This document shows positions 7,667 through 64,000 of a stretch of DNA of 64,000 nucleotides, piece by piece. The stretch's first letter is position 1. Every line of letters starts with the position of its first letter. A program made the position numbers and the translations under genes. Source of the stretch: Candidatus Omnitrophota bacterium (GTDB lineage Bacteria; Omnitrophota; Gorgyraeia; JABMRN01; RBG-13-46-9); assembly GCA_016782425.1 (NCBI GenBank), contig JADHYN010000005.1:6502-70501 (forward strand), given 5' to 3'. A model generated the notes under the pieces. The model had not been told where the DNA came from and ran no database searches. It worked only from the letters and a program-made list of their open reading frames with translations.

Positions 7667-8754
7667 AGATCATAGCATTGGCCAACCAGAAAGGCGGTTG
7701 TGGAAAAACGACTACTGCAATAAATCTAGCCGCGGGCCTGGCAGAACGCGGCCGGCGCGTACTCTTGATTGATAGCGACCCGCAGGCGCACGCCTCGATC
7801 GGTTTGGGCGCGTTAAAGACCGAGGTCTCCGAAACCATCTACGCCTTATTTACGGAAGAAATCCAAAATTCAAAAAAGATAAACGAGCTTAAAGTAAACA
7901 TCGACCGAAACTTCGACCTCGTGCCATCTCACATAATCCTTAGCACCATAGAACATGAGCTGAAAGAAAGAGAAGACGGACTTCTAATATTGAATAAAGC
8001 AATCAGCCATTCCGAATTGAACTACGACTACGTAATAATCGACTGCCCTCCTAATCTCGGGTTCCTGACCTTCAACGCGCTCAGGGCCGCAACCGACATA
8101 ATAATACCCGTCGAAACAAGCGTGTTCTCTGTTATCGGCGTAGGGAAATTGATAAGCATGGTAGAGCTAATAAAAATAAAGCTCCACCACGCCCCGCACA
8201 TTAAGGGCCTCGTTACGATGCACGACGAATTTTCTGATTTCTCCGTTAGGATGCTTCAAAAAATAAAATATGTTTTTAAGGACCGGCTGCTTAAAATTGT
8301 CGTCTCCTTTGACACGACACTCCGCGAAGCCCAGGAAAAATCTATCCATATTTTTAAAATGAACTCGCAGTCCCGCGCTGCGCACGACTACCTCGCGCTT
8401 GCCGATGAGCTGCTAGCCATGGATAAGGAAGAATCGGCCGAGAATATTTATCAGGAAATGCGCAAGATAATGCACGGCGTATACGGCAACGTGTACTCAA
8501 AGGAAAAAACCTTTAACTTTTACGCGCCGGTCGCAAAAGAGGTTTTCGTCGTAGGGAATTTTAACGACTGGAAAATAGACGATTTTAGCAAGTTGGATCG
8601 GCAGGAAAGCGGCCATTGGGAAAAATCGCTTTACCTTCTGCCCGGAAAATACCGCTATAAGTTCGTCGTTGACGGGCTCTGGTTCTGGGATCCCAAAAAC
8701 TCGGAAAAGGAACCTAATCCATACGGCGATTTCGATTCGGTCTTTCAGGTATAG
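7663..8754 (+). CDS. ParA/Soj-type ATPase fused to a C-terminal CBM48 (AMPK-beta-like glycogen-binding) domain
   Basis: Deviant Walker [23 protein letters not shown] and LLIDSDPQ. The C-terminal ~80 aa read [21 protein letters not shown]...[20 protein letters not shown]...GDFDSVFQV, matching the AMPK-beta GBD pattern (GSFNNW...LPEGEHQYKFFVDGQW..DP). Confidence 0.85.
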
Positions 8755-11062: not shown

Positions 11063-12096
11063 TGCCAAAAACAAAAATAATTGCCACCCTCGGCCCGGCA
11101 ACTGATTCCGGAGGGACTTTGCGCAAAATGTTCCGGAACGGCCTGCATGAAGTGCGCCTGAATTTTTCGCACGGGAAAGTAGAGGACCATAAAAGGCGGA
11201 TACGCATGGTTCGCGATCTCAATAAAAAAATGCGTCGCGCAGTAAAGATCATGCAGGACCTCGAGGGGCCGCGCATACGGGTGGGTAAGCTAAAAAGCGA
11301 TCTAAACCTGAAGAAAGGCGCGGAGTTCTACCTTACTCAAGACCGCGTAACCTCAAGCTCAAAAACAGTACCGTTTGATTATAAAGGGTCTCTAAAGCCC
11401 ATAAAAACGGGCTTTCTGATTTACGTCGACGACGGCAAAATCATCCTTGAGGTAAAAAAGGCAGGGAAAAAGAGCCTTAAAGTAAGATCCCTTGTATCAG
11501 GGCTCTTAAAAACACGCAAGGGGATTAACATCCCCGAGGCAAAACTGGACTTTGAGGCGCTTGACTCAAAAGATAGAGCAGACTTAAAAGTAGGCATGAG
11601 CGAAAAAGTAGACGTTATCGCGCAATCTTTCGTAAGAACCGCTGCTGACGTCAGGCATCTCAAAAAAGAAGTGCATTCGGCGCGGCCTTCATGTTTAGTG
11701 TGCGCGAAAATCGAGAGCCGCCAGGCGCTTCTTGACATTGATAACATAATCAATGAGGCTGACATGGTCATGATTGCGCGGGGGGACCTGGGGGTATGTA
11801 TTCCTATATACAAAGTGCCCGTCGTGCAAAAAGAAATAATCAAAAAATGCCGCCTAAAAAACAAGCCCGTCATCGTCGCGACCCAGATGCTCGAGAGTAT
11901 GATCGAAGAGCCTATTCCGACAAGGGCAGAGGTTAGCGACGTGGCAAATGCTATTCTTGACGGAGCAACGCATATGCTTCTTTCAGCGGAAACCTCAATA
12001 GGAAAGCACCCGCACAAGGTTGTTGAGATGATGGATAAAATCGCGAAAAACACCGAGGCCTACCAGTCCAAACTCCGCTCGTTCTTCTCCGTATAA
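11062..12096 (+). CDS. pyk: Pyruvate kinase, short form lacking the C-terminal domain
   Basis: MPKTKIIATLGPA...LNFSHG, ...MIARGDLGV..., ...ATQMLESM. It is only 344 aa, against roughly 470 aa for typical enzymes. Confidence 0.85.
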   Translation: MPKTKIIATLGPATDSGGTLRKMFRNGLHEVRLNFSHGKVEDHKRRIRMVRDLNKKMRRAVKIMQDLEGPRIRVGKLKSDLNLKKGAEFYLTQDRVTSSSKTVPFDYKGSLKPIKTGFLIYVDDGKIILEVKKAGKKSLKVRSLVSGLLKTRKGINIPEAKLDFEALDSKDRADLKVGMSEKVDVIAQSFVRTAADVRHLKKEVHSARPSCLVCAKIESRQALLDIDNIINEADMVMIARGDLGVCIPIYKVPVVQKEIIKKCRLKNKPVIVATQMLESMIEEPIPTRAEVSDVANAILDGATHMLLSAETSIGKHPHKVVEMMDKIAKNTEAYQSKLRSFFSV

Positions 12097-12442: not shown

Positions 12443-12479
12443 AGCCCTATGGCCAAAAGGCCTTGGGGCTTTATTTTTT
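12443..12479 (+). terminator. Rho-independent terminator
   Basis: AGCCCTATGGCC-aaaa-GGCCTTGGGGCT followed by TTATTTTTT. The T-run overlaps the last Lys codons of convergent gpmA. Confidence 0.6.
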
Positions 12480-13232
12480 CTTTTTGGCTTTGCCCTGACT
12501 CGCCACTGACTGCATTGCCTTTTTGACTTCCTCGGGATCACCTAAATAATAATGCTTAAGTGCCTTTAAATCCTTGTCTAGCTCATATACGAGCGGTATG
12601 CCCGTAGGTATGTTGAGGGAGGGTATTTCACTATCTGGGATATTGTCCAAGTACTTTACAAGGGCCCTCAGGCTGTTTCCGTGAGCCGCGATAATAACTT
12701 TCTTGCCTTCTTTGACCACCGGAGCTATTTTCTCGTGCCAGTAAGGTAAAAATCTTACTACTGTGTCCTTCAGGCACTCGGTCGCGGGCACGTCTTTCGG
12801 ATTCAGTCCCCTGTAACGCGGGTCGTGTATCGGGTTACGCTCATCGCTCTCTTTGAGAGGTGGCGGGGACACGTCATAGCTTCTCCGCCATTCATGAACC
12901 TGCTTTTCGCCGAACTTTTCCGCTGTTTCGGCCTTGTTGAGTCCCTGCAGCACCCCATAGTGCTTTTCGTTAAGCCTCCACGAGCGGTATACAGGTATCC
13001 ACATAAGGTCCATGCAATCGGTGACGATCCAAAGCGTTCTTATGGCGCGTTTAAGGACCGACGTAAATGCCACGTCGAATGAGTAGCCTTCTTTTTTTAA
13101 AACCTCACCTGAGGTCTTCGCCTCTTCTATGCCTTTCTGGGAAAGATCAACATCTGTCCACCCGGTAAAGCGGTTCTCTTTATTCCACACGCTTTCGCCG
13201 TGTCTTAGTAATACTAATTTTATTGGTGCCAT
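12471..13232 (-). CDS. gpmA: 2,3-bisphosphoglycerate-dependent phosphoglycerate mutase
   Basis: [26 protein letters not shown] (RHG catalytic motif), 253 aa. Confidence 0.95.
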
Positions 13233-13326
13233 ACCTTGGGCCTCCTTTTTATAGTATTTTACTGATATCCTGAGTTAAATCAATGAAAATATCAAAAGGT
13301 CGCTGGAGGTGAAGTTAAACTGCGAA

Positions 13327-13700
13327 CAGGTGTCCTTAAGGTGGCGTCTAGAATAAAGAGGGTTGCCTGCCTAGCGGCTCGCCTCGCGGCGAAGCCGCGG
13401 GCAAGGCCGCTGGCTTGGGCAGATGGAGGCGGTGTGGCCTTGAAGACAGAAAATTTTGTGTGCGAACAGCGTAATTGAGTAAACCCAGCACTTATTTTGA
13501 TAAAATAAGTGCTGGGGAGAAATCTTAAATACACCAATTGCCGTGAGCCACAAAATTCGTCTGAAACCGATTCTACTCTGAATTTCTACTATAGTCGGTT
13601 CCCCGAGCCGAAGGCGAAGGGAAAGGTCGCGCCGCATCCATCCTGCCTCTATGGCAATGCCCGTAACCCTCTAATAACCAAGCTGCCGGAAGGATGCCTG
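13327..13700 (-). repeat. Copy 1 of a ~0.4-kb GC-rich hairpin-dense element (structured ncRNA or MITE-like repeat)
   Basis: 13654-13693 is the reverse complement of 16520-16559, with 34 of 40 positions identical and the last 20 all identical. The ends are complementary: CAGGTGTCCTTAAGG at 13327-13341 against CCGGAAGGATGCCTG at 13686-13700. A second tier pairs AGAGGGTT (13358-13365) with AACCCTCT (13665-13672). There is an internal perfect 15-bp hairpin at 13484-13516. Confidence 0.6.
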
Positions 13701-13765
13701 CTTGCCGCCAGCTTCTACTTTATACCTTGTGTTTTCTTTTTACTTATATTATTATATTACCCATT

Positions 13766-15310
13766 ATGAAAGCAGGTATTCTTCTGGCACTACTACAGGC
13801 AGCAACCGAATTCTTGCCCGTATCATCTTCGGGGCACCTCGCGCTGGCAGCAAATATTATCTCCGAGCCAAATCTATTCTTTTTCACAGCGCTACATATG
13901 GCATCCCTGATAGCCGTTATCATATTTACCCGGAAGGAAATAGCAGAGCTTTTATCATTCAAAAAAGACTCCCGAACAATATGGCTCTACCTTGCTATCG
14001 CCACTCTGCCGGCTGCGGCCTTCGGATTTTTCTTCAGAAAAACAGTTGAATCGGCGTTCAGCTCTCTTACTGCTATCGGCATAGCGTTCATCATAACCGG
14101 GGCAATTCTTTTTCTCACAAAATTCGCAAGACGCCGCGCCGTGATTACCTCAAAAAGCGCATCTCTTATAGGTATCTCACAGGCCTTCGCATTGTTCCCG
14201 GGCATATCACGAAGTGGCATGACCATATCAGCCGGCCTTTTTCTCGGGATGGAACCTGGAAAAGCCGTGCGTTTTTCATTTCTTTTATATATCCCTCTTT
14301 CTTTAGGCGCTTTTATCCTGGAAGCGGAGAAGGGAGCCTATTTTAACGGAACTCTTCTGGTTTCTTTTCTGGTATGTCTTTTTGCAAGTTTATTTTTTCT
14401 TAAAGCTCTCTTGGCACTCGTAAAAAGGGGTCGACTCTGGATGTTTTCATTTTACTGCGTTCTCCTGGGGTGCGTTACGCTTTTTATGGCCCATTCCGAA
14501 AATATGGTGCCTATTAAAAAATCCGGCACTGCCTACGCCCAGACAGAAAAAAAACTAGAAAGGCAAGACCTGCTTATTGAAGTAAGCGACCGGACGTGGG
14601 AAATATTTGAGGACGTGCAAAGATTCGAGCCCATAAAAATGACGTTCGACCCCGGCCGCGGCAAAGGTAAAATATCGGAAAATATTTCCGCGCAATTTAT
14701 CTGCTCTCCGAAAACGTTTGATATCTATATAGTTCTTTACAGCCCTCACATTACGGAAGAGACGCTTCTTCACGAGGCGTTGCATGCCAAAAATATAGTG
14801 CAAGGCTTTCCCTTTCTTCTCGGCCGCGCTTTTCCGGAAAAGAACACGATGGCAAACCTTGAAAACCAGATAGAGCACATGAGGATATTTTCCGAAATGA
14901 GGGATATGGGTTTTGATCCCGAAGCCTATGCGCAAAAAAGATGGAAAAGCGGCATTGAAACAATCGGCACCGATGCGCTCAACAATATTCCTTCCGATAC
15001 AGAGCCTTACGTAATCCGGGCAATAGTGGCGACTTATGCCCTGGGGGGCCTCGTCGCCGGCATCAGCTCTGAAGAAATCAAAAAAAATATACCGCTGCAC
15101 TTCGCGGATTATGTCGATACCGGGAGCGAGATTTACGAGACATTAAAAAAATACGATCTTCGGAACAGGGCAGAAAATATGGAAGCGCGCATCAAGATAG
15201 GCTCACTTTTGCGCCTTGAGGATCGGGACGCTCTTCTTTGCGAGATGGACTTTAAAAACCGTAAACTGTCCTGCTACAACATAGAAACAGGGACGCCGCT
15301 CGGAGATTAA
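13766..15310 (+). CDS. uppP: Undecaprenyl-diphosphate phosphatase (UppP/BacA) fused to a ~265-aa C-terminal HEXXH domain
   Basis: UppP signature ATEFLPVSSSGHL and a multi-TM body up to about aa 270 of the track ORF, then a soluble region with LLHEALHAK (HEXXH at nt 14771-14785). The start was moved to ATG 13766 (MKAGILLALL...) because the upstream extension overlaps the repeat element. Confidence 0.8.
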   Translation: MKAGILLALLQAATEFLPVSSSGHLALAANIISEPNLFFFTALHMASLIAVIIFTRKEIAELLSFKKDSRTIWLYLAIATLPAAAFGFFFRKTVESAFSSLTAIGIAFIITGAILFLTKFARRRAVITSKSASLIGISQAFALFPGISRSGMTISAGLFLGMEPGKAVRFSFLLYIPLSLGAFILEAEKGAYFNGTLLVSFLVCLFASLFFLKALLALVKRGRLWMFSFYCVLLGCVTLFMAHSENMVPIKKSGTAYAQTEKKLERQDLLIEVSDRTWEIFEDVQRFEPIKMTFDPGRGKGKISENISAQFICSPKTFDIYIVLYSPHITEETLLHEALHAKNIVQGFPFLLGRAFPEKNTMANLENQIEHMRIFSEMRDMGFDPEAYAQKRWKSGIETIGTDALNNIPSDTEPYVIRAIVATYALGGLVAGISSEEIKKNIPLHFADYVDTGSEIYETLKKYDLRNRAENMEARIKIGSLLRLEDRDALLCEMDFKNRKLSCYNIETGTPLGD

Positions 15311-15312
15311 AA

Positions 15313-16062
15313 GTGGATAAGATAAGCGTAATTCAGGGGCTGATCGACGCTAAAAAGGCCCGAGTTTACCTTGAGATCGGCGTTGCCAGCGGCGATTGCT
15401 TCCTTAAGATCACCGCAGCAAATAAAATCGCCGTAGACCCGGAATTTACCATACCCTTCCGCCGCAAGGTAAAGCGCCATATGAAAAGATTGCGTTCGGT
15501 ATTCAACGCCAAGTCCCGGATGAATGAATATTATTACAGGATGCGAAGCGACAACTTTTTTGCGGGACAGAACTTGCCATTGCTCAAAGAAGGGCTCGAT
15601 GTAGTATTCGTTGATGGCCTGCACACTCACGAGCAATCTCTCTCTGACGTTAAAAATAGCCTTACCCGCCTGAGCCCGGGAGGCGTTATTGTTGTGCACG
15701 ATTGCAACCCGACCACGAGCGCCGCGGCATTTCCTGCTGCATCCTATGAGGAAGCCAGAGAAAGCAAACCGGAAGGCTGGCGAGGTGAATGGAGCGGAAA
15801 TGTCTGGAAAACGATACCCTACTTGAGGTCAACAAGAAGAGACCTTGATATTTTCGTCCTTGATTGCGACTGCGGACTTGGAATAATCACGAAAAGGGAA
15901 AATGCTCCCGCGCTTAACTGCAAAGCAGAAGCTATAAAGCTGATGGGCTATAAGGAGCTTGAAAATGAAAGGGAGTATCTTTTAAATCTGAAACCTGAAA
16001 ATTTTTTCCACAAGTTTCTAGGGGAATTAAAGAAAAGGAGTTCCGGTGAAAAGGCTAAGTAA
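15313..16062 (+). CDS. Class I SAM-dependent methyltransferase (Methyltransf_24-like)
   Basis: VYLEIGVASGDC...VVFVDGLHTHEQSLSDV...GGVIVVHD. It is paralogous to the N-terminal domain of 22058..23107. Confidence 0.7.
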   Translation: MDKISVIQGLIDAKKARVYLEIGVASGDCFLKITAANKIAVDPEFTIPFRRKVKRHMKRLRSVFNAKSRMNEYYYRMRSDNFFAGQNLPLLKEGLDVVFVDGLHTHEQSLSDVKNSLTRLSPGGVIVVHDCNPTTSAAAFPAASYEEARESKPEGWRGEWSGNVWKTIPYLRSTRRDLDIFVLDCDCGLGIITKRENAPALNCKAEAIKLMGYKELENEREYLLNLKPENFFHKFLGELKKRSSGEKAK

Positions 16063-16498
16063 GGCGCTTCTCTTTTTTGTCGCGTTGTTTGTTATAAGCG
16101 GGTGTTCTCAAGTGTCCTCGCAAGAGGTCTCCGGAGAGGATCAACCGCAGGATTTTATAACGGAGTATAAAGGTCTTGTTGATGAGGCGCTGGATGCATA
16201 TAACAGTGGGAACTCGAAAGACTTCTACAAAAACTTTTCCGGCCAGAGGCTCGGCCTCACTGATGAGGTATTCAGGGCCATCTGGATCGACGGCTACAAA
16301 GCGCAATTCGGCAACCTGCTTTCGAAAGAGCTCCTGCCGGACAAGTGCGATTTAAATACAATTTGCCCGCTTCTCACATACAGGGGAAAATTCGATAAAA
16401 ATCCCGATGTCATTATCAAGGTGACTTTCGTCAAAGACGAAGGCGCTTCTTCCTATAAGCTCTTCTATATCCGCTTCGACGCCGATCTCGAGTGGTAG
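16046..16498 (+). CDS. Hypothetical lipoprotein
   Basis: GTG start with AAGGAG 6 nt upstream. Signal plus lipobox FVISGCSQ. Confidence 0.6.
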   Translation: MKRLSKALLFFVALFVISGCSQVSSQEVSGEDQPQDFITEYKGLVDEALDAYNSGNSKDFYKNFSGQRLGLTDEVFRAIWIDGYKAQFGNLLSKELLPDKCDLNTICPLLTYRGKFDKNPDVIIKVTFVKDEGASSYKLFYIRFDADLEW

Positions 16499-16512
16499 GC
16501 TTCTTGCAGTAA

Positions 16513-16948
16513 ACCTTGTCCTTCCAGAGACTTGATTAATAGAGGGTTACGGGCATTGCTTTCGCTTGATGTTTCCGCCAGAGGCGGACCCGCCTCGGGC
16601 GGGCGCTCGGGGATGCGCGCCCCTCGCCCCGTACCAAAGCAAAGCTTGGTACGGGGCTCGCCGCTTAGGCAGGTGGGATCTAAAAGCTTTTGATACTTGG
16701 CGCGCATAAGGGTCGAAGCGGGTATCCTGGAGGCGATAAATAAAAAAGAAGGTTTCGGGTAATGCTGGAGCGAAGCTTGAAAAAGTGCTCATACAATTGG
16801 CGCCATTTAGCTGCATAATTTTTTATGCAGTAGGTCATGAGCGCTTTTTCACGCCAGCGACCGAGGAGGCGCCTATCCTCCGAGGGAGCGACGAGCGGAA
16901 GCACTGCCCGGAACCTTCTTACTACTCAGGTCGCCGGAAGGATGCCCG
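16513..16948 (+). repeat. Copy 2 of the GC-rich hairpin-dense element, in inverted orientation relative to copy 1
   Basis: The ends pair: GTCCTTCC at 16518-16525 with GGAAGGAT at 16936-16943. AGAGGGTTACGGGCATTGC (16541-16559) pairs with GCACTGCCCGGAACCTTCT (16901-16919) over 19 positions with 2 mismatches and 1 G:U. Internal perfect hairpins include CCCCGTACCAA/TTGGTACGGGG (16627-16656), GGGCGC/GCGCCC, CCCGCC/GGCGGG and CTGCATAA/TTATGCAG. Confidence 0.6.
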
Positions 16949-16972
16949 TTTGCAGCCTTATAGAATGCTCGA

Positions 16973-27762: not shown

Positions 27763-27849
27763 ACTGCTATTATATGACATCAACTCTAAAACAACACTAA
27801 TTAAATTATGTCTCGTTTGATGCTCGAATCTGGTATCTAGGCGCTGGCT

Positions 27850-27976
27850 GCTGGTATGGAAACTAGAAGCTGAAAACTTGAAGCTGGTATAAACGCCTAT
27901 ACTAGATTCTCGCTTCAAGCTTCCGGCTTCCATACCAGCTGCCATAGCCCAGGTCCTAGCTTCCGGTTTCCATAGT
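27850..27976. repeat. Four copies (two direct, two inverted) of a TATGGAARCYRGAAGCT-like motif
   Basis: Copies at 27850-27870, 27881-27895, 27918-27938 (inverted) and 27959-27976 (inverted), in the divergent dus/greA intergenic region. Confidence 0.55.
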
Positions 27977-58220: not shown

Positions 58221-58452
58221 ATATTTCTCCTTTTGTTTTAACAGATTTTTATTCTTCGCTTTGCTGCTCTAATTCTTAATGCATAAATTATACCCTCAAA
58301 AAAAACTACTTCAAGGAAAATTGTGAACTTTCCTTGCATTCCCCGCACCTACCCCGTAAAATACCCCTTTGAACCCCCGCCTCGGGGTGAAAAAGCAGTT
58401 TCTTTGGCACTATTGCATTGCAGGGTTAAGATATGATATACTACGATTTATA

Positions 58453-58989
58453 ATGAAATATTCTACAGTTTTTCATTTAATGTCTGCCGTATCAGAAAAA
58501 AATGCCGTCTCTTGTATTTTAATAGGTGGCTTTGCTATTAACTACTACAAGGTAACGCGCCAAACGCTAGATGTGGATTTTCTCATTACAAAAGAAGACT
58601 TTAAAAAAATACTTCCCTCATTAGAAAGGGAAGGCTACAAAAAAGATTATTCCCAAGAAGTGGTTACCAGGCTCCAAGCTAATTCTTTGTATCTGATGGA
58701 TCTTGATTTCATGTTTGTTGATAAAGACACTCTGGATAAAATTATCTCCGAGGGCAAGAAAATAACCATAGCTAAGCAAGAGTTTATCGTGCCATCCATA
58801 GAGCATCTGATCGCATTAAAATTACATTCTATAAAGAACAACCCCGATATAAGAAAAAATAAGGACTTACCGGATATTGTTAACTTGATAAAGGTTAATA
58901 AAGTAAATGTTAAAAATGAGGAATTTAAAAAAATGTGCTTGAAATACGGTAACGCAGAATTATACAACGAGATCTTAAAAGAGGCATAG
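58453..58989 (+). CDS. Nucleotidyltransferase-fold protein (toxin-antitoxin-associated type)
   Basis: CILIGGFAINYY...LDVDFLI... is a minimal-NTase-like pattern. The start was trimmed from the track's TTG to ATG 58453, downstream of TTGCAT...TATACT. Confidence 0.45.
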   Translation: MKYSTVFHLMSAVSEKNAVSCILIGGFAINYYKVTRQTLDVDFLITKEDFKKILPSLEREGYKKDYSQEVVTRLQANSLYLMDLDFMFVDKDTLDKIISEGKKITIAKQEFIVPSIEHLIALKLHSIKNNPDIRKNKDLPDIVNLIKVNKVNVKNEEFKKMCLKYGNAELYNEILKEA

Positions 58990-59160
58990 ATGAAAGACAT
59001 TGATCTACCTATTATAAAAAAACAACTGCCACGGGAGAGACATTTACCCATGGATGATTACCTAAGATTTATCTATTTAAATTTAAAGTACACTGCAGAC
59101 ATAACGGCAAGTAGAAAGCTCAAAAGACTCTTGTCAGTAAATAAGGCATTCTCGCTTTAA
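58990..59160 (+). CDS. 56-aa partner ORF abutting the previous stop (TAGATG)
   Basis: My own translation is MKDIDLPIIKKQLPRERHLPMDDYLRFIYLNLKYTADITASRKLKRLLSVNKAFSL. Confidence 0.35.
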   Translation: MKDIDLPIIKKQLPRERHLPMDDYLRFIYLNLKYTADITASRKLKRLLSVNKAFSL

Positions 59161-59223
59161 CCCTATAACATAGGGACACATCCGAATATATGAACCCCCG
59201 CCACAGCATAAGTTCGTGAATAC

Positions 59224-59252
59224 TTGACAGAGGCGGTGTAATATGTTACACT
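59224..59252 (+). promoter_or_regulatory. Promoter (TTGACA, 17 nt, TACACT)
   Basis: TTGACA at 59224-59229 and TACACT at 59247-59252. Confidence 0.5.
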
Positions 59253-59275
59253 TATCGGTGTAAAAGGTGGTTCAA

Positions 59276-59824
59276 ATGATTTCACTAAAATCTAAGGTAA
59301 CGGGCAGTATATTAAATTATTTTTTCATTAACCCGGGTTCGTCTCTTTATGTTAATGAACTTTCGGAAAAGTTGAGTTTAGATAAGAGAAATCTTGTTAA
59401 AAAGCTCAAAGAACTGGAAAAAGAGGGCCTCTTAAAAAGTGAACCAAAAGGAAATCTTAAGTTATATTCCGGCGATAAAAAATACCCCTTATACAATGAA
59501 TACAAAAAAATTATTCTGAAAACATTGGGCTTTGAGAAAAAATTGGCTGACTTACTTAAAGATGTTAAAGGCATTGAGACAGTTTACATATATGGATCTT
59601 ACGCGGAAAACAGACTAAGTGTTCACAGCGACATAGATTTATTAGTCATAGGAAATCATAAGATTATATCGCTTCAAAAAAAGGTAAGCCGCTTACAAAA
59701 AGAAATAGACAGGGAAATAAATGCCGTAAGCATGGCTAAAAACGATTTTAATAAAAGAAAGAGATCCGGTGATCCATTCATAAAAGGCGTGTTGAAAAAA
59801 AAATATATCGAGATAGCGCTATGA
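59276..59824 (+). CDS. wHTH + minimal nucleotidyltransferase (MNT-type antitoxin-like)
   Basis: The N-terminal winged-helix-like region (...YVNELSEKLSLDKRNLVKKLKELEKEGLL) is followed by YIYGSYAENRLSVHSDIDLLVIG. The ATG at 59276 is preceded by AAAGGTGG. Confidence 0.7.
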   Translation: MISLKSKVTGSILNYFFINPGSSLYVNELSEKLSLDKRNLVKKLKELEKEGLLKSEPKGNLKLYSGDKKYPLYNEYKKIILKTLGFEKKLADLLKDVKGIETVYIYGSYAENRLSVHSDIDLLVIGNHKIISLQKKVSRLQKEIDREINAVSMAKNDFNKRKRSGDPFIKGVLKKKYIEIAL

Positions 59825-60246
59825 AATTTGATGATAGATATTTTAAGCGCTTTGACTTCAGCAAAGAGCAGATTGAAAAGAATCTGCAAAATGCCTTTAA
59901 AGACTTCGATATTGCGGTGAAGGATAATATCCTGGAGGTAAAATTCAATTACGCCTATACTTCTTTAATTAAAGCCGGAATAACACTGCTCAGTTTTTAC
60001 AAATTGAAAATAAAGAGTGTTCCCGGACACCACATAAAAATAATAGACAAGATGTCGGATATTTTAAAAAATGATACTATTAATGAAATCGGAAATGCAA
60101 TGCGGTCAAAAAGAAATTTAGATTTTTATTCAGGTGGCATAGAAGTCACAGAGAAAGAGTGCCATGAATATATTGCTTTTGTCAAAAAAGCGCTGAAGGA
60201 TATTCAAAAACATATTAAAGGTAATCCCGAACCATCTTCGTACTAA
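59821..60246 (+). CDS. HEPN-domain protein (toxin-like partner of the MNT)
   Basis: 4-nt overlap with the MNT gene. All-helical, ~140 aa, with a ...MRSKRNLDFY... Rx4-6H-like region. Confidence 0.6.
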   Translation: MKFDDRYFKRFDFSKEQIEKNLQNAFKDFDIAVKDNILEVKFNYAYTSLIKAGITLLSFYKLKIKSVPGHHIKIIDKMSDILKNDTINEIGNAMRSKRNLDFYSGGIEVTEKECHEYIAFVKKALKDIQKHIKGNPEPSSY

Positions 60247-60274
60247 ACGCCCCTTATCGTCCCTTATCGCCCTT

Positions 60275-60325
60275 TACCTGCCTACCGCCTGCCATGCCTA
60301 TCGGCAGGTAAACCGGCAGGCAGGG
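60275..60325. repeat. Expanded REP-like palindrome (CCTGCC / GGCAGG arms)
   Basis: TACCTGCCTACCGCCTGCC-atgcctatc-GGCAGGTAAACCGGCAGGCAGG. Confidence 0.6.
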
Positions 60326-60539
60326 ATGTGTCCCTAATTAAAAAAAGTAAAAGCCGTCACCGACGACGTAGCTTCTAAGAGGCTGGAGACAGGTTTCCGC
60401 AGCATCGAACGAGTGGTGTTGTTGCTGAAGCAAGATTGAAAAGACACCTCCGAGGTGACCCACAGCAGTGGGGCTCCTCGGAGGTGGAAATGGTTCCCCT
60501 AAATGGCTCCCCGCATTGTTTCACCCCGCATTGTTTCAC

Positions 60540-60568
60540 TTGACAAAACAACTATTTGGTTGTATACT
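60540..60568 (+). promoter_or_regulatory. Promoter (TTGACA, 17 nt, TATACT) preceded by a tandem 15-mer
   Basis: TTGACA at 60540-60545 and TATACT at 60563-60568. CCCCGCATTGTTTCA x2 at 60509-60538 abuts the -35. Confidence 0.6.
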
Positions 60569-60591
60569 TGTTTTAGCAGGAAAGGCTAATA

Positions 60592-60954
60592 TTGAAAGTA
60601 GTAGAATGTAGTTATTTAGTAAAAGGCAAGCGAAAACCGGCTAAAGAATTTATTGATTCTTTAGATTTATGGACACAGAGAAAGTTCTTTGATAAAAAGG
60701 ACCTTTTAGAAGAATTTGGACATAGGCTTCCGGAGCCACATGCTAAGTACCTTACAGATGGTATATTTGAATTAAGATTCAGCGGGAAAGAAGGAAAAAT
60801 AAGGGTTCTTTATTTTTTCTTTCATAAAAACAAAGCAATATTTACCAACGGCTTTATTAAAAAGACTCAAAAGACACCAAAACAACAGTTACGACTCGCG
60901 ATTAAAGATAGAAAAAGTTTTTTAGAGAAATATAAAAAAGGAGGCGCAGGATGA
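60592..60954 (+). CDS. RelE/HigB-superfamily toxin (phage Gp49-like, DUF891-type)
   Basis: TTG start with AGGAAAGG upstream. ...GIFELRFSGKEGKIRVLYFFFHKNKAIFTNGFIKKTQKTP is typical of Gp49-like toxins. Confidence 0.7.
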   Translation: MKVVECSYLVKGKRKPAKEFIDSLDLWTQRKFFDKKDLLEEFGHRLPEPHAKYLTDGIFELRFSGKEGKIRVLYFFFHKNKAIFTNGFIKKTQKTPKQQLRLAIKDRKSFLEKYKKGGAG

Positions 60955-61292
60955 AATATAAAATAGAAAGTGTAGACGAACACATAAAAGAGAAATTAAA
61001 AGACCCGTATTTTAAAGAACTGCATGAACTTGAACATCAAAAGCTTGGATTGGTGAAGAAGATTATAAGCTATAGAGTGAATAACAATATTACACAGGAC
61101 GAGCTGGCCGATCAAGTGGGTGTTACGCAACAGCATATCTCTAAGATTGAGAACTGTGAATTTACCGATCCTGTTACGCTTGCGAAGGTCCTGCTTTTTG
61201 TCGGTTTTAGAGTTCATATGAAAGCAGAGCCCATTAGGCCTGTAACAAGAAAAAAGATAAGGCGTGTAATCCAAAAGTTAGCAATGGCGTAG
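60951..61292 (+). CDS. XRE-family HTH antitoxin
   Basis: 4-nt overlap with the toxin gene. ITQDELADQVGVTQQHISKIENCE. Confidence 0.8.
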   Translation: MKYKIESVDEHIKEKLKDPYFKELHELEHQKLGLVKKIISYRVNNNITQDELADQVGVTQQHISKIENCEFTDPVTLAKVLLFVGFRVHMKAEPIRPVTRKKIRRVIQKLAMA

Positions 61293-61369
61293 AAGCATAA
61301 TCCCGAAACCTTTTCGCAACTAACACACCACCGATCACCGATAGACGCAAACAAAAGGAGCACCCAATT

Positions 61370-61413
61370 CCCCCCGGAACAACAAAAATCGAGCTCGAGT
61401 TGGAGGGGTAGGG
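61370..61413 (+). repeat. Dispersed ~45-50-bp repeat, copy 1
   Basis: CCCCCCGGAACAACAAAAATCGAGCTCGAGTTGGAGGGGTAGGG. Confidence 0.8.
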
Positions 61414-61441
61414 AAAAGGTTTAGATGAGGAGGAAAAAATA

Positions 61442-62086
61442 GTGAAGAGATTCTCATATTTATCACTTTTAGTAATTCTTCTGGCTTTTTGTTCCGGTTG
61501 CAGCGGAAAGGTTCCTATTAACGAAATGCCAATGTATGGCAATGTTCCGAAAACCCCTTACCAGAAGGAAATGGACGAGCAATTCATTAAAAAAGTTATC
61601 GAACAATTTGGTAGCAGAAAAGCTGCGGCTAAAGAGCATGTGGCGTTTGCCTGGTATTATTACAACAAGGGCGACTTAAAAACTGCAATGAAAAGATTTA
61701 ACCAGGCGTGGTTACTTGACCCGAACAATGAAGAAGTGTTTTCTGGATTTGGTCTTCTTATGAGCAAGAGAAGGCAATACGACGATACGAAAGCAATGTA
61801 TGATAAAGCCATTCAAATAAATCCTAATTATGCCGATGCCTACCATAATCGAGGACTCGCTTATGCTGGTATGGGCAATTATGAAAAGGCAATCTCTGAT
61901 TTTACTAAAGTAATAGAAATTGTCCCTAACAGTTCCCAAGCTTACAATGATAGAGCTGTCGCATACTACAGGATCAAGGAATACAATAAAAGCCGGGATG
62001 ACGTGGAAAAAGCAAAAGAATTAGGATATGAGGTTAGTCCGGGATTTATTAAGGCACTAAGCGGTTCATTAGAAAGGGAAAAGTAA
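61442..62086 (+). CDS. TPR-repeat lipoprotein
   Basis: GTG start with GAGGAGG upstream. Lipobox FCSGCSG. TPR units include AYHNRGLAYAGMGNYEKAISDFTKVIEIVPN. Confidence 0.8.
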   Translation: MKRFSYLSLLVILLAFCSGCSGKVPINEMPMYGNVPKTPYQKEMDEQFIKKVIEQFGSRKAAAKEHVAFAWYYYNKGDLKTAMKRFNQAWLLDPNNEEVFSGFGLLMSKRRQYDDTKAMYDKAIQINPNYADAYHNRGLAYAGMGNYEKAISDFTKVIEIVPNSSQAYNDRAVAYYRIKEYNKSRDDVEKAKELGYEVSPGFIKALSGSLEREK

Positions 62087-62135
62087 CCCGCCCCCGGGAA
62101 CAACAAAAATCGAGCTCGAGTTGGAGGGGTAGGGG
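62087..62135 (+). repeat. Dispersed ~45-50-bp repeat, copy 2
   Basis: CCCGCCCCCGGGAACAACAAAAATCGAGCTCGAGTTGGAGGGGTAGGGG. It starts at the first base after the TPR gene's stop. Confidence 0.8.
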
Positions 62136-62294
62136 AGAGGGCACTCTCGTCTTTGCGAGGGCGCGAAGCGCCCGAAGCAACCCCTTACTATTTTAGCGCC
62201 TCAACCACCACCCAAACAACAAGCCCCACCAGCTCTGAAATAAACTTGCTTTTGTCGAATATATGATATACTTTTGTATACACAAAAGTATTAT

Positions 62295-62555
62295 ATGAAA
62301 AGCATTACGTGGAACTTATTAAAGAGTGAGCGCTTGAAACGCACAAGAGGTGCTTCTTTTGAAGATATAATAGGCTCTCAGCTTATTGCTGTTAAAAAGC
62401 ACCACAAAAAAGAGCACCAGAATATAATGCTTTTTAGTTATAAAAGATACATTTGGGTAGTGCCTTATGTGGAAACGGATAAGGAAATTTTTCTTAAAAC
62501 ATTATATCCGAGCCGTAAATATACAAGGTTTTATAAGGAGGGAAAGATAAAATGA
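62295..62555 (+). CDS. BrnT-like (DUF497-type) toxin
   Basis: ITWNLLKSERLKRTRGASFEDI...IFLKTLYPSRKYTRFY. The start was trimmed to ATG 62295. The promoter region contains the near-palindrome CTTTTGTATACACAAAAG. Confidence 0.55.
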   Translation: MKSITWNLLKSERLKRTRGASFEDIIGSQLIAVKKHHKKEHQNIMLFSYKRYIWVVPYVETDKEIFLKTLYPSRKYTRFYKEGKIK

Positions 62556-62803
62556 GCAGAATTAAATTAACGAAACAAGAAAAAGCTATTGAGAATGCAT
62601 TGCTAGAGGGCAGCTATAAAGACACTCCAAGGAATGAATTTAGTTCGATAGCAGAGGCCCTCGCGGCCCGAAAAAAAGATGCTGTTTTAAATATCCGCAT
62701 TAATAGTAAGGATTTGGCCAGCATCAGACAAAAAGCTAAGAGGTTTGGCATTAAATACCAGACCTTCATTGCCGAACTGATTCATAGAGTAGCCAGGACT
62801 TAA
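62552..62803 (+). CDS. BrnA-like (CopG/RHH) antitoxin
   Basis: 4-nt overlap with the toxin gene. LNIRINSKDLASIRQKAKRFGIKYQTFIAELIHRVA. Confidence 0.65.
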   Translation: MSRIKLTKQEKAIENALLEGSYKDTPRNEFSSIAEALAARKKDAVLNIRINSKDLASIRQKAKRFGIKYQTFIAELIHRVART

Positions 62804-62851
62804 GACTCAACCCGAACCCCTCCCGTGCTAAACTCACACCGTCTCAAGCTT

Positions 62852-62897
62852 ACCCCGTTAGACACTACGAGATACCCCGCGCTGTGTCTAACGGGGT
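62852..62897 (+). other. Perfect 14-bp inverted repeat with an 18-nt loop
   Basis: ACCCCGTTAGACAC (62852-62865) and GTGTCTAACGGGGT (62884-62897), followed by TTTACCTT. Possibly a terminator for the brnTA-like pair. Confidence 0.5.
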
Positions 62898-62970
62898 TTA
62901 CCTTGAAGCGGTTTTGTTTCGCCTACGCCACAGAAGAAGTTCATAGTAGGTCGGCTTCGGCGGATGTCGC

Positions 62971-63008
62971 CAAAACTTCTTTTCTAGAGCTCCATTTAGG
63001 GGTATAAT
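62971..63008 (+). promoter_or_regulatory. Conserved 38-bp promoter block (copy 2), 5 nt before the ATG
   Basis: CAAAACTTCTTTTCTAGAGCTCCATTTAGGGGTATAAT. 35 of 38 positions are identical to 35515-35552. Confidence 0.6.
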
Positions 63009-63013
63009 TAAGC

Positions 63014-63178
63014 ATGATGAAAATAGTTATAGGCATGCTAATAGGCGGAGCGATTGGCTTTGCGATAGGGTATTTTGGCAGGTGCGCCTCCGGTGCATGT
63101 CCTCTTACAAGTAATCCGGTAACAAGCACCATAATTTTCGCTCTTATTGGCGGTCTTATAGCCGTCATGAATAGATAA
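63014..63178 (+). CDS. DUF6132-like small membrane protein (54 aa), below the track cutoff
   Basis: My own translation is MMKIVIGMLIGGAIGFAIGYFGRCASGACPLTSNPVTSTIIFALIGGLIAVMNR. The G-rich TM / C-x4-CPLTSNP / TM pattern matches my recollection of DUF6132. Confidence 0.5.
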   Translation: MMKIVIGMLIGGAIGFAIGYFGRCASGACPLTSNPVTSTIIFALIGGLIAVMNR

Positions 63179-63203
63179 CAAGGCATTCTAACCTGGTTAT
63201 CTG

Positions 63204-63220
63204 TCTGCCGGCAGGCAGGG
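63204..63220. repeat. REP-like palindrome fragment TCTGCCGGCAGGCAGGG
   Basis: Shares CCGGCAGGCAGGGA with 60311-60326 and 35600-35611. Confidence 0.5.
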
Positions 63221-63268
63221 ATTTGGTAGATTAAAAGTGAGCTTGTAAGAACTGAAGGGAATATCAAA

Positions 63269-63742
63269 ATGATAAAAAGATGCAAGTATTGCTTAAAGCC
63301 GCTTAAGGAAACTAGTGATATATGCACCTTCTGCAAAATAGATAACAAAAAATCAAAGAGAGACCTTGCGAAACATGAAAAATTGGTCGCTTATTTTTGC
63401 TGGGGCATCAGGATAATCGGTTTTCTTGTAACGCTTTACGGAATACTTATGGCGCTTTCTTTTGTGGGGCTTTTGCTTCCGACTATAGGAAAAAATATAA
63501 CCACTACTCCTGTCGTAGTTTTCGCCTGTACTATGTCTCTTTTTGGTATATTTTCTATTTTTCTCGGGGTCGGGTTGAGGCGATACTACAAATGGTCATT
63601 TTGGGGAGGCGCGATCCTATTTTCACTATCCCTGATACTAAGCGTTTTATCCTTGAATATTATCGGCCTCTTATTCAACAGCCTGTTTTTATACTATACT
63701 GTAAACCGCACTTCAAGGAAAATATTACTACACGAACTTTAA
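63269..63742 (+). CDS. Zinc-ribbon plus 4-TM membrane protein
   Basis: N-terminal CKYC...CTFC, then four hydrophobic segments. Confidence 0.5.
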   Translation: MIKRCKYCLKPLKETSDICTFCKIDNKKSKRDLAKHEKLVAYFCWGIRIIGFLVTLYGILMALSFVGLLLPTIGKNITTTPVVVFACTMSLFGIFSIFLGVGLRRYYKWSFWGGAILFSLSLILSVLSLNIIGLLFNSLFLYYTVNRTSRKILLHEL

Positions 63743-63780
63743 AAAAGGCATAAAGCTCCGAAACGCTTTCGCACTGAACG

Positions 63781-63833
63781 CCCGGCACAACCAAAATCGA
63801 CCTCGAGTTGGAGAGGCAGGAAAGAGGGTTGCC
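63781..63833 (+). repeat. Dispersed ~45-50-bp repeat, copy 3 (diverged)
   Basis: CCCGGCACAACCAAAATCGACCTCGAGTTGGAGAGGCAGGAAAGAGGGTTGCC. Confidence 0.7.
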
Positions 63834-63855
63834 CAAAATAAAAGCGTAAGGGCTA

Positions 63856-63884
63856 TTGACTTTTAGTAAGGTATGTTGTATACT
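63856..63884 (+). promoter_or_regulatory. Promoter (TTGACT, 17 nt, TATACT) followed by TTGTATA/TACAA operator-like repeats
   Basis: TTGACT at 63856-63861 and TATACT at 63879-63884. Confidence 0.55.
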
Positions 63885-63929
63885 TATATACAAAGAGTTG
63901 TATAAATAGATACAATAAATTGTATGATT

Positions 63930-64000
63930 ATGAAATACCGAATAGATAAAGACACACTGCTAAATACTTTATCCGTCTGGAATAGTCTTCTTAAGAAAAA
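63930..64000 (+). CDS. 5' end of a gene cut by the window edge (possibly another TA-type nucleotidyltransferase)
   Basis: MKYRIDKDTLLNTLSVWNSLLKK... remains open to the window end. The family guess is weak. Confidence 0.3.
   Translation, partial: MKYRIDKDTLLNTLSVWNSLLKK

Follow-up and report, generated by a model that had tools for sequence, protein, structure and literature searches.

Within a 64-kb stretch of DNA from a Candidatus Omnitrophota MAG (the window), two GC-rich, hairpin-dense sequences, here called c1 and c2, lie on either side of a three-gene operon. The original prediction took them for inverted copies of one element and left three readings: (a) a structured non-coding RNA (ncRNA) family, (b) a MITE-like non-autonomous element and (c) the inverted repeats of an invertible or composite segment. 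The locus therefore raises the question of what kind of sequence these copies are and whether they have any bearing on the genes between them.

The copies are intergenic, as predicted, and gene callers placed no gene over them in four assemblies, independent ones included. Only mechanical ORFs of 50-90 aa cover them, on both strands, and a six-frame peptide query found no protein relative. They are also richer in GC than their surroundings, at 0.53 (c1) and 0.55 (c2) against 0.44 for the window. Because independent ENA and Logan assemblies carry identical copies, c1 and c2 are not an assembly artefact. Assembly breaks do fall within the elements: the ENA contig L003 begins at 13512, inside the 15-bp hairpin of c1, and L002 terminates at 16625, immediately ahead of the 11-bp hairpin of c2. 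Two further Omnitrophota species from the same samples carry related modules, 81-94% identical, at intergenic sites unrelated to these. One is Omnitrophota BS750m-G79 (L042), with copy A at 11214-11985 (L042-A) and copy B at 7760-7965 (L042-B); the other is L055. The features of the window are as follows.

13319..13709, + strand: c1, whole element (~390 nt; 391 nt as delimited), its limits set by the extent of end complementarity and by the right-end conservation common to c2 and L042-A.
13334..13382, + strand: left arm of c1, diverged, holding AGAGGGTT (13357) and the word CCTGCCTAGCGGC.
13484..13516, no strand assigned: AT-rich perfect 15-bp hairpin of c1 (inverted repeat I5, 100% complementary).
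13546..13635, + strand: module B of c1, an interior block common to another species (93% over 90 nt to L042 7871-7959, same strand).
13654..13709, + strand: right arm of c1 (type I) with the conserved tail GCCGGAAGGATGCCTGCTT, 93% identical to L042 11920-11974.
13766..16498, + strand: bracketed three-gene operon (uppP-HEXXH, Methyltransf_24 and a 150-aa lipoprotein-like gene), GC 0.467; context, not element.
16503..16957, + strand: c2, whole element (~455 nt).
16519..16566, + strand: left arm of c2 (type I), 45/48 to the reverse complement of the L042-A right arm.
16570..16602, no strand assigned: hairpin H1 (CCGCCAGAGGCGG...), a module common to L042-A and L042-B.
16627..16656, no strand assigned: GC-rich perfect 11-bp hairpin of c2.
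16657..16684, - strand: module C (GCCGCTTAGGCAGGTGGG...), reversed relative to L042-A (93% over 28 nt to L042 11521-11548, opposite strand).
16735..16925, + strand: U unit, a complete ~185-nt sub-element (inverted repeat I3; homologue at L055 912-1096) with the 5' box TGCTGGAGCGA.
16716-16766: the U unit's own left arm.
16775-16854: central hairpin of the U unit.
16865-16881: 3' box of the U unit with the small hairpin GGAGG-CGCCTAT-CCTCC; the unit also has a right arm.
16893..16957, + strand: right arm of c2 (type II) with the tail GCCGGAAGGATGCCCGTTT, 86% over 91 nt to L042 11885-11974.

The c1 element has the divergent His_Phos_1 gene (12471-13232, -) on its left and uppP-HEXXH (13766-15310, +) on its right; the nearest UppP homologue found anywhere is just 54% identical. 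The c2 element occupies the gap between the convergent genes for the lipoprotein (end 16498, +) and an Orn/DAP decarboxylase (end 16973, -). The inner tiers of complementary ends that had been predicted, AGAGGGTT with AACCCTCT (13665, in the right arm) for c1 and AGAGGGTTACGGGCATTGC (16541) with GCACTGCCCGGAACCTTCT (16901) for c2, are all present. So are the perfect stems of 15 bp at 13484-13516 and 11 bp at 16627-16656, and the shared word GCCGCT(T)AGGCAGG was located at 16660 (+) and 13366 (-).

The match that led to the inverted interpretation is real. The segment 13654-13693 is identical to the reverse complement of 16520-16559 at 34 of 40 positions, and the match extends to 41 nt at 85%. 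Its 20-nt identical core, TAGAGGGTTACGGGCATTGC, occurs nowhere else in the 64 kb, even when up to 3 mismatches are tolerated, and was matched in none of 100 shuffles. The elements as wholes, however, run in the same direction. Their right ends are repeated directly (13654-13709 against 16901-16957, 77% over 57 nt), and a global alignment of c1 with c2 scores higher in direct (z 7.8) than in inverted orientation (z 5.9). L042-B bridges the two, with a same-strand match to the left part of c2 and to the interior of c1, and the right ends of both align to L042 11885-11974, again on one strand. Taken together, these alignments indicate that c1 and c2 are direct (+) repeats, each carrying its own imperfect inverted arms of ~45-60 nt, and not the inverted pair first described. 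Since each copy has its own inverted arms, the 41-nt inverted match is that of the c1 right arm with the c2 left arm. It is the terminal inverted repeat of the family seen across neighbouring copies, and no device acting on the three genes between them.

This bears directly on the proposal of an invertible cassette or composite transposon, in which the inverted arms (13654-13694 and 16519-16559) would bound the three-gene segment, and which we consider very improbable. The 41-nt repeat with its perfect core does enclose 13695-16518, and a Logan contig recovered identically from three samples covers 13644-16558, with one end in each arm; its ends are nevertheless asymmetric about the repeat, the left one 10 nt outside the core and the right one 1 nt inside it. 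Besides the direct orientation of the elements themselves, an invertible cassette has against it that the window contig and the three ENA assemblies that reach a flank (L001 both, L002 the left, L003 the right; three samples) show a single orientation, although assemblies report the majority form alone. Neither the Pfam annotation of some 10 kb to each side nor the 30 window proteins scanned include a recombinase or transposase. As to a composite transposon, the flanking copies are non-coding and encode no transposase. In L042 an analogous pair encloses an acyl-CoA dehydrogenase/ETF operon which is present at the same place, without any element, in four relatives; therefore the elements were added around a resident operon. 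The invertible gene cassette is not supported, and the family is an example of an already known kind of genomic "junk" element.

The L042 locus also provides the comparison of an occupied with an empty site. The spacer from ETF-alpha to MerR measures 870 nt in L042 versus ~105-140 nt in L046, L047, L053 and L055, in which ETF-alpha is 83-85% identical. A TTGACA-N17-TATACT promoter is kept at this site, and the extra ~770 nt of L042 sits between the stop codon and the conserved promoter. The L042-A site is thus empty in the four related species, a comparison between species and not strains, so that the relatives may formally have lost the element. No direct repeat that would be a target-site duplication (TSD) is recognisable where c1, c2 and L042-A end, a weak negative as the exact termini are uncertain. 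The empty site that the original prediction had named as a mark of a MITE is therefore present between species, without the duplication named beside it.

With c1 and c2 included, the copies recovered number just five or six in three species. Two are present in ~80 kb of the window genome, 2.8 kb apart, two plus a solo tail (1071-1089) in 21 kb of L042, and one and a half in L055, the half being a partial unit at 2070-2114. Alignments between the window and L042 give identities of 93% over both 90 and 55 nt, 90% over 48 nt, 86% over 91 nt and 81% over 73 nt; the U unit of L055 (912-1096) is 89% identical over 55 nt. Elsewhere in the 64-kb window, comparison with these loci gave one marginal translated match (35% over 37 aa) and nothing more at the DNA or translated level. 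In what was sampled, the modules alone are the DNA common to these genomes at the nucleotide level. A search of JGI metagenomes with an 18-mer of the arm returned chance matches alone, and the tail motif, sought in GTDB genomes, led to a single genuine locus. A duplication or accidental likeness restricted to the window locus, with no wider family, would account for two copies so close together in ~80 kb. Given the homologous modules at unrelated loci of two other species, and the shuffles in which the core never arose, such an origin has next to no probability and was rejected.

Aligned with one another, the copies resolve into a small set of shared modules: arms of ~45-60 nt (two subtypes, inverted, with the tail GCCGGAAGGATGCCYGYTT), hairpin H1, module B, module C and the ~185-nt U unit. 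Each copy has its own combination of them, with truncations, inversions and nesting. L042-B has no right arm, module C is present three times in L042-A, the block C-H1 is inverted between c2 and L042-A, and the two arm subtypes face each other. H1 is 82-91% identical to L042 11567-11600 and 87% to L042 7842-7871, the copies within L042 being 97% alike. The arms match better between species (45/48, 94%) than within an element (39/49 and 32/41, 78-80%). Thus the c2 left arm agrees with its own partner at 39/49 and with the reverse complement of the c1 right arm at 39/48, and the c2 right arm agrees with the reverse complement of the L042-B left arm at 41/47. The c1 left arm has 31-32 matches across 41-45 aligned positions to type I arms, and the minimum-energy fold of c1 pairs it with the right arm. 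The arms of the U units are 86-88% complementary over 21-26 nt.

On the + strand of the window c1 and c2 are the strongest folding outliers, at -184 kcal/mol (z -9.7) and -218 kcal/mol (z -10.7), compared with -166 (z -7.3) and -189 (z -7.3) on the - strand. For c1, c2 and both U units the + strand folds better by 10-29 kcal/mol, whereas L042-A folds equally well on either strand and L042-B also lacks a preference. Counts of G:U pairs on the + and - strands are 13/11 in c1, 19/21 in L042-A, 4/6 in L042-B and 23/6 in c2; c2 alone is skewed, and a family-wide asymmetry is absent. The original argument from G:U pairs for a DNA-level element arrived at the outcome favoured here, from a wrong assignment of orientation. 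Between the U units of c2 and L055, 11 of 16 pairs of the central hairpin are changed on both sides and still paired, one U:G pair is conserved and both arms carry a matched 6-nt insertion. All cells (100%) are paired versus 40-54% in slid controls, and 0 of 500 shuffles reach the observed values; this covariation is that of two sequences, from which the tested structure was itself derived. Three species share the hairpin loop CGCCUAU unchanged, and a change in its stem is compensated. In the 3' tail a small hairpin reads CAAGC/GCUUG in one form and CAGGU/GUUUG in the other, three transitions that all give G:U on the + strand, as read from the sequence.

Could the ~185-nt U unit alone, or whole ~400-nt copies, then be a structured ncRNA family transcribed from the + strand? 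The strong folds, the + strand preference, the G:U skew of c2 and the compensated hairpins all point that way, as does the co-orientation of L042-A, L042-B and the L055 U unit, all three copies whose neighbours run in one direction, with both adjoining genes. Such an RNA might serve, for instance, as a UTR element that stabilises, terminates or processes the transcript of the adjoining operon, or as a guide-like RNA of an unrecognised mobile system. We nevertheless regard this reading as unlikely. The copies are non-syntenic, and four related species have none at the L042-A site. Their architecture is mosaic, truncated and partly inverted, and two of them fold without strand preference. A co-evolving closing helix predicts arms nearest to their pairing partner, and these are nearer to the arms of other genomes. 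Nothing resembling a promoter or a terminator was found within the copies or at their edges. The Rfam search suggested in the original prediction was run, and c1 and c2 match no family: the 64-kb window has no match at the gathering threshold, and the 4227 families of Rfam 15 gave no covariance-model match at E up to 10 across the c1-c2 region or up to 1 in the related loci, and no E value under 0.06 arose for the elements in the window, L055 or L042. As a conserved RNA gene this reading is not supported; what survives of it is the sub-unit that keeps its hairpins, with the + strand favoured. The 11 double changes with the conserved + strand G:U, the folding bias and the co-orientation fit selection on a single-stranded form, and an RNA would show the same. 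The U unit, its hairpins apparently kept by compensatory change, may therefore have a role as RNA or single-stranded DNA.

The MITE-like reading is the best supported of the three, by occurrence in three species at unrelated sites, the empty site, the mosaic copies and the pattern of arm similarity. We consider it probable that c1 and c2, which run in the same direction, are copies of a repeat, non-coding and non-autonomous, palindromic and mosaic, of the MITE, BIME-REPIN or BOX kind in Black Sea Candidatus Omnitrophota. The repeat family is common to several Black Sea Omnitrophota genomes and is probably mobile. Such elements would spread at the DNA level, mobilised in trans by an enzyme whose gene lies elsewhere, perhaps an arm-binding transposase or an enzyme of HUH/RAYT type with specificity for single-stranded DNA hairpins. 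The spread would take place within genomes and between co-occurring Omnitrophota, and copies would persist where harmless, after a stop codon and/or ahead of the next promoter. Transcripts that read through them would form long hairpins and could incidentally affect mRNA ends. In ~80 kb of the window genome and ~20 kb of each of the others we found no transposase, RAYT or other recombinase with these arms, and the Pfam annotation of the sampled loci contains no HUH or Y1 transposase.

Bacterial MITEs, such as Correia/CREE of Neisseria, ERIC/IRU of enterobacteria and Nezha of cyanobacteria, are small (about 0.2-0.8 kb) and non-coding. The elements described here resemble them in size (391 and 455 nt), intergenic position, lack of coding capacity, imperfect terminal inverted repeats, which bound c1 and c2 as well as the U units, filled versus empty sites in relatives, and strong hairpin potential if transcribed. 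Like MITEs they may also occur in several copies per genome, two having been seen in the sampled DNA of the window genome and two in that of L042. They differ in that neither a TSD nor a parent insertion sequence with the same ends was found here, in the unusually long arms (~45-60 nt) of two subtypes matching at 78-80% within a copy, and in being mosaics of exchangeable modules instead of length variants of one sequence.

REP/BIME and REPIN elements of gamma-proteobacteria, reportedly mobilised by RAYT (HUH tyrosine) transposases, are similar in their mosaic palindromic units of alternating orientation with interspersed motifs, in their location after stop codons and between transcription units, and perhaps in hairpins kept by compensatory change, as the comparison of two U units suggests. 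A TSD is not expected for them. REP units are 20-40 nt long with hundreds of copies, whereas the present modules are 30-190 nt with few copies seen; no RAYT gene lies in the DNA examined here, and the conserved GTAG-type 5' motif was not identified. The BOX elements of Streptococcus pneumoniae (boxA-boxB(n)-boxC), for which we know of no mobilising enzyme, are likewise modular, intergenic and non-coding, with partly complementary end modules that make the whole element one long stem. They are unrelated in sequence and phylum, and their A-B-C order is fixed, whereas the modules here are also inverted, nested and truncated. The large structured bacterial ncRNAs GOLLD, ROOL, OLE, HEARO/omega RNA and raiA, known from Rfam, share the size range, the very negative fold z-scores and the three-way-junction-like form of the U unit with conserved boxes; the present family, in contrast, has no Rfam match, is non-syntenic and mosaic and has no IscB/TnpB-type gene alongside.

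A different MITE was also observed in L055, where it is nested beside the U unit and present in two 100% identical copies, which suggests that MITEs have recently been active in these genomes.

The original prediction described two inverted copies of a GC-rich element that bracket a segment of the genome. These copies, c1 and c2, belong to a family of modular repeats that form hairpins, do not code for protein and end in inverted arms; the family occupies unrelated intergenic sites in three co-occurring Omnitrophota species. At one of these sites a single species carries the element and its relatives lack it. We consider it fairly probable that c1 and c2 represent a mobile non-coding repeat family with DNA-level spread, and they are best explained as selfish or neutral repeats of an ordinary class. 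The features discussed are the following.

Window 13319-13709: copy c1, GC-rich and hairpin-dense
Window 13766-16498, plus strand: three-gene uppP operon between the copies
Window 16503-16957: copy c2, GC-rich and hairpin-dense
Window 16735-16925: U unit, a sub-element of c2
L042 (Omnitrophota BS750m-G79) 11214-11985: copy A, ~770 nt, after the stop codon of ETF-alpha and before the MerR promoter
L042 7760-7965: copy B, ~200 nt, upstream of the acyl-CoA dehydrogenase promoter
L055 (a third co-occurring species) 912-1096: U unit, with a partial second unit

The window region was read directly and scanned for repeats. The inverted match behind the prediction is real (13654-13694 vs 16519-16559, 41 nt at 85%; 34/40 over the coordinates first reported). 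Its 20-nt core has only two sites in the 64 kb with up to 3 mismatches allowed, and 0/100 shuffles gave a match. The two-tier complementarity of the copy ends, the perfect hairpins at 13484-13516 and 16627-16656 and the word GCCGCT(T)AGGCAGG are present as described. The GC content is raised (0.53 and 0.55 in the two copies vs 0.44 in the window), and the intergenic position stands, with no gene placed on either copy by the gene callers in independent assemblies. Both elements are identical in several ENA and Logan assemblies, with no sequence variation among those copies, and so are not artefacts.

The opposite orientation given to the copies was wrong. The inverted match is between the right arm of c1 and the left arm of c2; the right ends are also direct repeats (13654-13709 vs 16901-16957, 77% over 57 nt in the repeat scan). 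Because arms are found at both ends of each copy, the ends alone cannot give the orientation. We conclude that c1 and c2 are direct copies, because the global alignment is better in the direct sense (z 7.8) than in the inverted sense (z 5.9), because both fold better on the plus strand (c1, -184 kcal/mol vs -166 on the minus strand; c2, -218 vs -189), and because the matches in L042 are on the same strand. Copy B (7760-7965) matches the left part of c2 (16529-16600) and the interior of c1 (13546-13635) on one strand, and L042 11885-11974 is a same-strand match to the right ends of both. These matches are the most decisive of the three results, and with this bridging copy the picture of inverted copies bracketing a segment fails. 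A third arm-like sequence inside c2 (16716-16766) pairs with the c2 right arm, so c2 consists of a left arm and hairpins followed by a complete U unit of ~185 nt.

Further copies exist beyond the window locus, in the two other co-occurring species. Among the GTDB species representatives, which do not include the window's own species, a scan with the tail motif GCCGGAAGGATGCCNGNTTGC, the conserved end motif of the family, returned 20 loci. One is real (L021, extended as L042) and 19 are chance matches, mostly in Firmicutes. By protein look-ups, BS750m-G79 shares ENA samples with the window organism. The modules are 81-94% identical between species over 43-91 nt. The rest of the 64-kb window gave one marginal translated match to these loci (35% over 37 aa) and otherwise none at the DNA or translated level. 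The nearest homologue of UppP is only 54% identical among the matches listed; at this homologue, reached by synteny via uppP-HEXXH, the genomic context is different and there is no element.

Other searches gave no additional copy. A JGI metagenome scan with AATGCCCGTAACCCTCTA returned five matches, all chance, the best of them (L029) inside a 610-aa ORF. Viral contig scans with two patterns gave nothing, or chance matches in seemingly one recurring phage sequence, and blastn against plasmids and phages gave no match. A six-frame peptide concatenate of the conserved modules, which could reveal copies via spurious ORFs, had no match among 5.8 billion proteins. There is no additional copy in the 10 kb to the right and 6 kb to the left of the window. 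Only the known copies were returned by nhmmer with the 3' box (0.58 Mb of loci) and by a covariance model of the U unit (0.24 Mb of loci).

The insertion of copy A can be read from related species. The spacer between ETF-alpha and MerR is 105-140 nt in L046, L047, L053 and L055 (ETF-alpha 83-85% identical), and a TTGACA-N17-TATACT promoter before MerR is conserved in all four. In L042 the spacer is 870 nt, and the extra ~770 nt are hairpin-dense and lie exactly between the stop codon and the promoter. Four of the five copies are downstream of a stop codon, and both L042 copies are also upstream of the next gene's promoter. Copy c1 sits between two divergent gene starts; c2 fills the gap of two convergent genes. 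No target-site duplication is visible at the family copies. In two genomes the copies cluster round an operon, for which the simplest explanation is a scarcity of permissive gaps between transcription units, or local transposition.

The copies are mosaics of arms and interior modules (H1, B and C). Copy B lacks a right arm and consists of a left arm, H1 and module B; c1 combines module B with a right arm, and its left arm is decayed. The block C-H1 is inverted in c2 relative to copy A. Assemblies break inside the elements again and again (L003 starts at 13512, L002 ends at 16625, and L044 and L045 end in copy A), and these break points hint at further copies in the samples. The Logan contig L004, identical in three samples, ends in both arms (13644 and 16558). 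Neither an inversion nor a 33-nt identity with copy A predicts its exact break points.

The gap 3' of the Inositol_P gene (L042 963-1675, L047 2858-3799, L055 877-2272) resembles a hot spot for insertions, occupied by an rve-family transposase in L047 and by a MITE nest together with the U unit in L055. In L042 it contains an unrelated 88-nt near-perfect hairpin followed by a solo tail motif, GCCAGAAGGATGTCCGCTT (1071-1089). The other MITE of L055 is 290 nt long, ends in terminal inverted repeats of 33 nt (TACGATACGGAACCTGTGTTGTGTAAGAGCCTT) and has TA on either side. Its two copies (1174-1463 and 1782-2071) are 100% identical and lie nested next to the U unit. This identity suggests recent MITE activity in these genomes.

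The U units of c2 and L055, two sequences, align in a common architecture. It is made up of a closing helix, the 5' box TGCTGGAGCGA and a central hairpin of 16 bp, and of a 3' hairpin, invariant in its loop CGCCUAU, followed by the box GAGGGAGCGRCRAGCGGAAG. In the central hairpin both sides have changed in 11/16 pairs, all of them still paired, and one U:G pair is conserved. A matched 6-nt insertion in the closing arms (CTTTGC/GCAAAG) distinguishes the two units. The pairing values were reached by 0/500 shuffles and slid controls were only 40-54% paired, for a structure derived from the same two sequences on which it was tested. The hairpins of the U unit appear to be under selection.

We regard it as unlikely that an RNA-level function is the primary explanation of the family. 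The copies c1 and c2 are the strongest plus-strand folding outliers when the whole window is folded in sliding stretches of 200 nt (whole-unit fold z -9.7 and -10.7). The double-changed pairs, the matched arm insertion and the plus-strand fold of both U units, better by 10-14 kcal/mol, all favour an RNA or single-strand role. Against it, copy A folds equally on either strand, and the G:U counts on the plus and minus strands of four copies (13/11, 23/6, 19/21 and 4/6) have no consistent asymmetry across the family. The arms point the same way. The left arm of c2 agrees with the reverse complement of the right arm of copy A at 45/48 positions and with its own partner at only 39/49; the c1 arms agree at 32/41. 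Such an arm pattern is the opposite of what a co-evolving RNA closing helix would produce and exactly what would be expected of copies of a family-wide consensus. REPINs move as single-stranded DNA and their hairpins are also maintained by compensatory change, so the U unit evidence fits an RNA and a hairpin-dependent mobile element alike and does not separate the two. No Rfam family was found in the whole window at the gathering threshold or in the elements of three genomes at permissive E-values. Within the copies there is no promoter-like or terminator-like site, and the scan totals do not exceed those of shuffles.

It is distinctly improbable that the U unit would be a functional single-stranded nucleic acid carried by the mobile element. 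It might be a new structured RNA, guide-like or regulatory, from a transposition system that has yet to be recognised. Alternatively, RNA 'brackets' would stand at both ends of operons, and their complementary arms would pair across the transcript for processing. Such brackets would agree with the pairing of the c1 right arm with the c2 left arm (34/40 positions) across the uppP operon, and with the placement of copies B and A of L042 on either side of the acyl-CoA dehydrogenase/ETF operon. Of the whole family, only the U unit could gain interest and is worth follow-up.

Under the favoured explanation, a mobile DNA repeat, the family would spread as DNA through a trans-acting enzyme, either a TIR-binding transposase or a HUH/RAYT-type hairpin enzyme, and would be exchanged horizontally among the co-occurring species. 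The elements would be transcribed passively as parts of UTRs. Neither a recombinase nor a transposase appears among the 30 window proteins scanned or in the Pfam annotation of ~10 kb to either side. The invertible three-gene segment that had been proposed is not supported, as the window orientation occurs in every assembly reaching a flank. A composite transposon in L042 is ruled out, since relatives carry the bracketed operon in place without the elements. Integron attC sites, considered for the CTTAGGC/GCCTAAG words and the bracketing of genes, are 57-141 nt long; this reading was rejected because the copies are of the wrong size and GTTRRRY core sites are absent. IS5-like ends, considered for GGAAGG, were rejected as well: that motif points away from the element, and the likeness extends over 7 nt only. 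In c1 the tail motif (GGAAGGATG) contains an ATG, at window 13694, that is in frame with uppP, and the resulting mechanical ORF (13694-15310) exceeds the called gene by 24 codons. We treat this ATG as non-coding and its frame as most likely coincidental, because in c2 and copy A it starts frames of no more than 12-13 codons.

The closest kinds of element are bacterial MITEs, REP/BIME/REPIN and pneumococcal BOX. The likeness is one of features and we claim membership in none of them. Like these, the family is small, non-coding, modular and intergenic, with inverted ends and hairpin potential. It differs in its long arms of two types, its large individual modules, the lack of a visible target-site duplication and the few copies recovered. 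The Omnitrophota are an uncultured phylum of mostly ultra-small bacteria. To our knowledge such elements have not been described in it, and a literature search gave nothing relevant on repeats. If correct, this would be the first description of a mosaic palindromic repeat family in the Omnitrophota. There are signs of the same non-coding modules moving between co-occurring species of the sulfidic Black Sea water column, which matters as a marker of horizontal exchange and as a cause of contig breaks in MAGs. The general understanding of such elements is unchanged by this family. The family further cautions against taking intergenic blocks of these genomes for ncRNA genes or invertible switches when they are GC-rich and dense in hairpins.

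Several other features of the window were observed. A ~140-nt imperfect palindrome lies between dus and greA (27822-27966; arms of 66 nt with 73% complementarity; fold z -7.5 on one strand and -7.8 on the other). Its sequence is unrelated to c1 and c2 and it is probably another palindromic intergenic repeat. It also suggests that the start of the mechanical dus ORF, at 27945, has been set too far upstream, as the Dus domain starts at residue 77. A dense group of toxin-antitoxin genes and defence-like genes extends over 58369-64000 and L049 10475-20474, the 10 kb past the right end of the window (two AbiEii, NTP_transf_2/Polbeta, Gp49 with an HTH partner, ParE, Fic and several family-less proteins). 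On the minus strand 62151-62350 and 62801-63000 are folding outliers (z about -4.5 after GC correction), with a perfect 14-bp hairpin at 62852-62897. They have no Rfam match, and small genes of 83-86 aa are called there in other assemblies. The uppP gene itself (13766-15310) encodes UppP (BacA domain) fused to a C-terminal region of ~260 aa with HEXXH and no Pfam match on record. Among the 120 homologues listed, nearly all are confined to the UppP half (48% of the query or less; one covers 57%), and the UppP-HEXXH fusion appears specific to this lineage.
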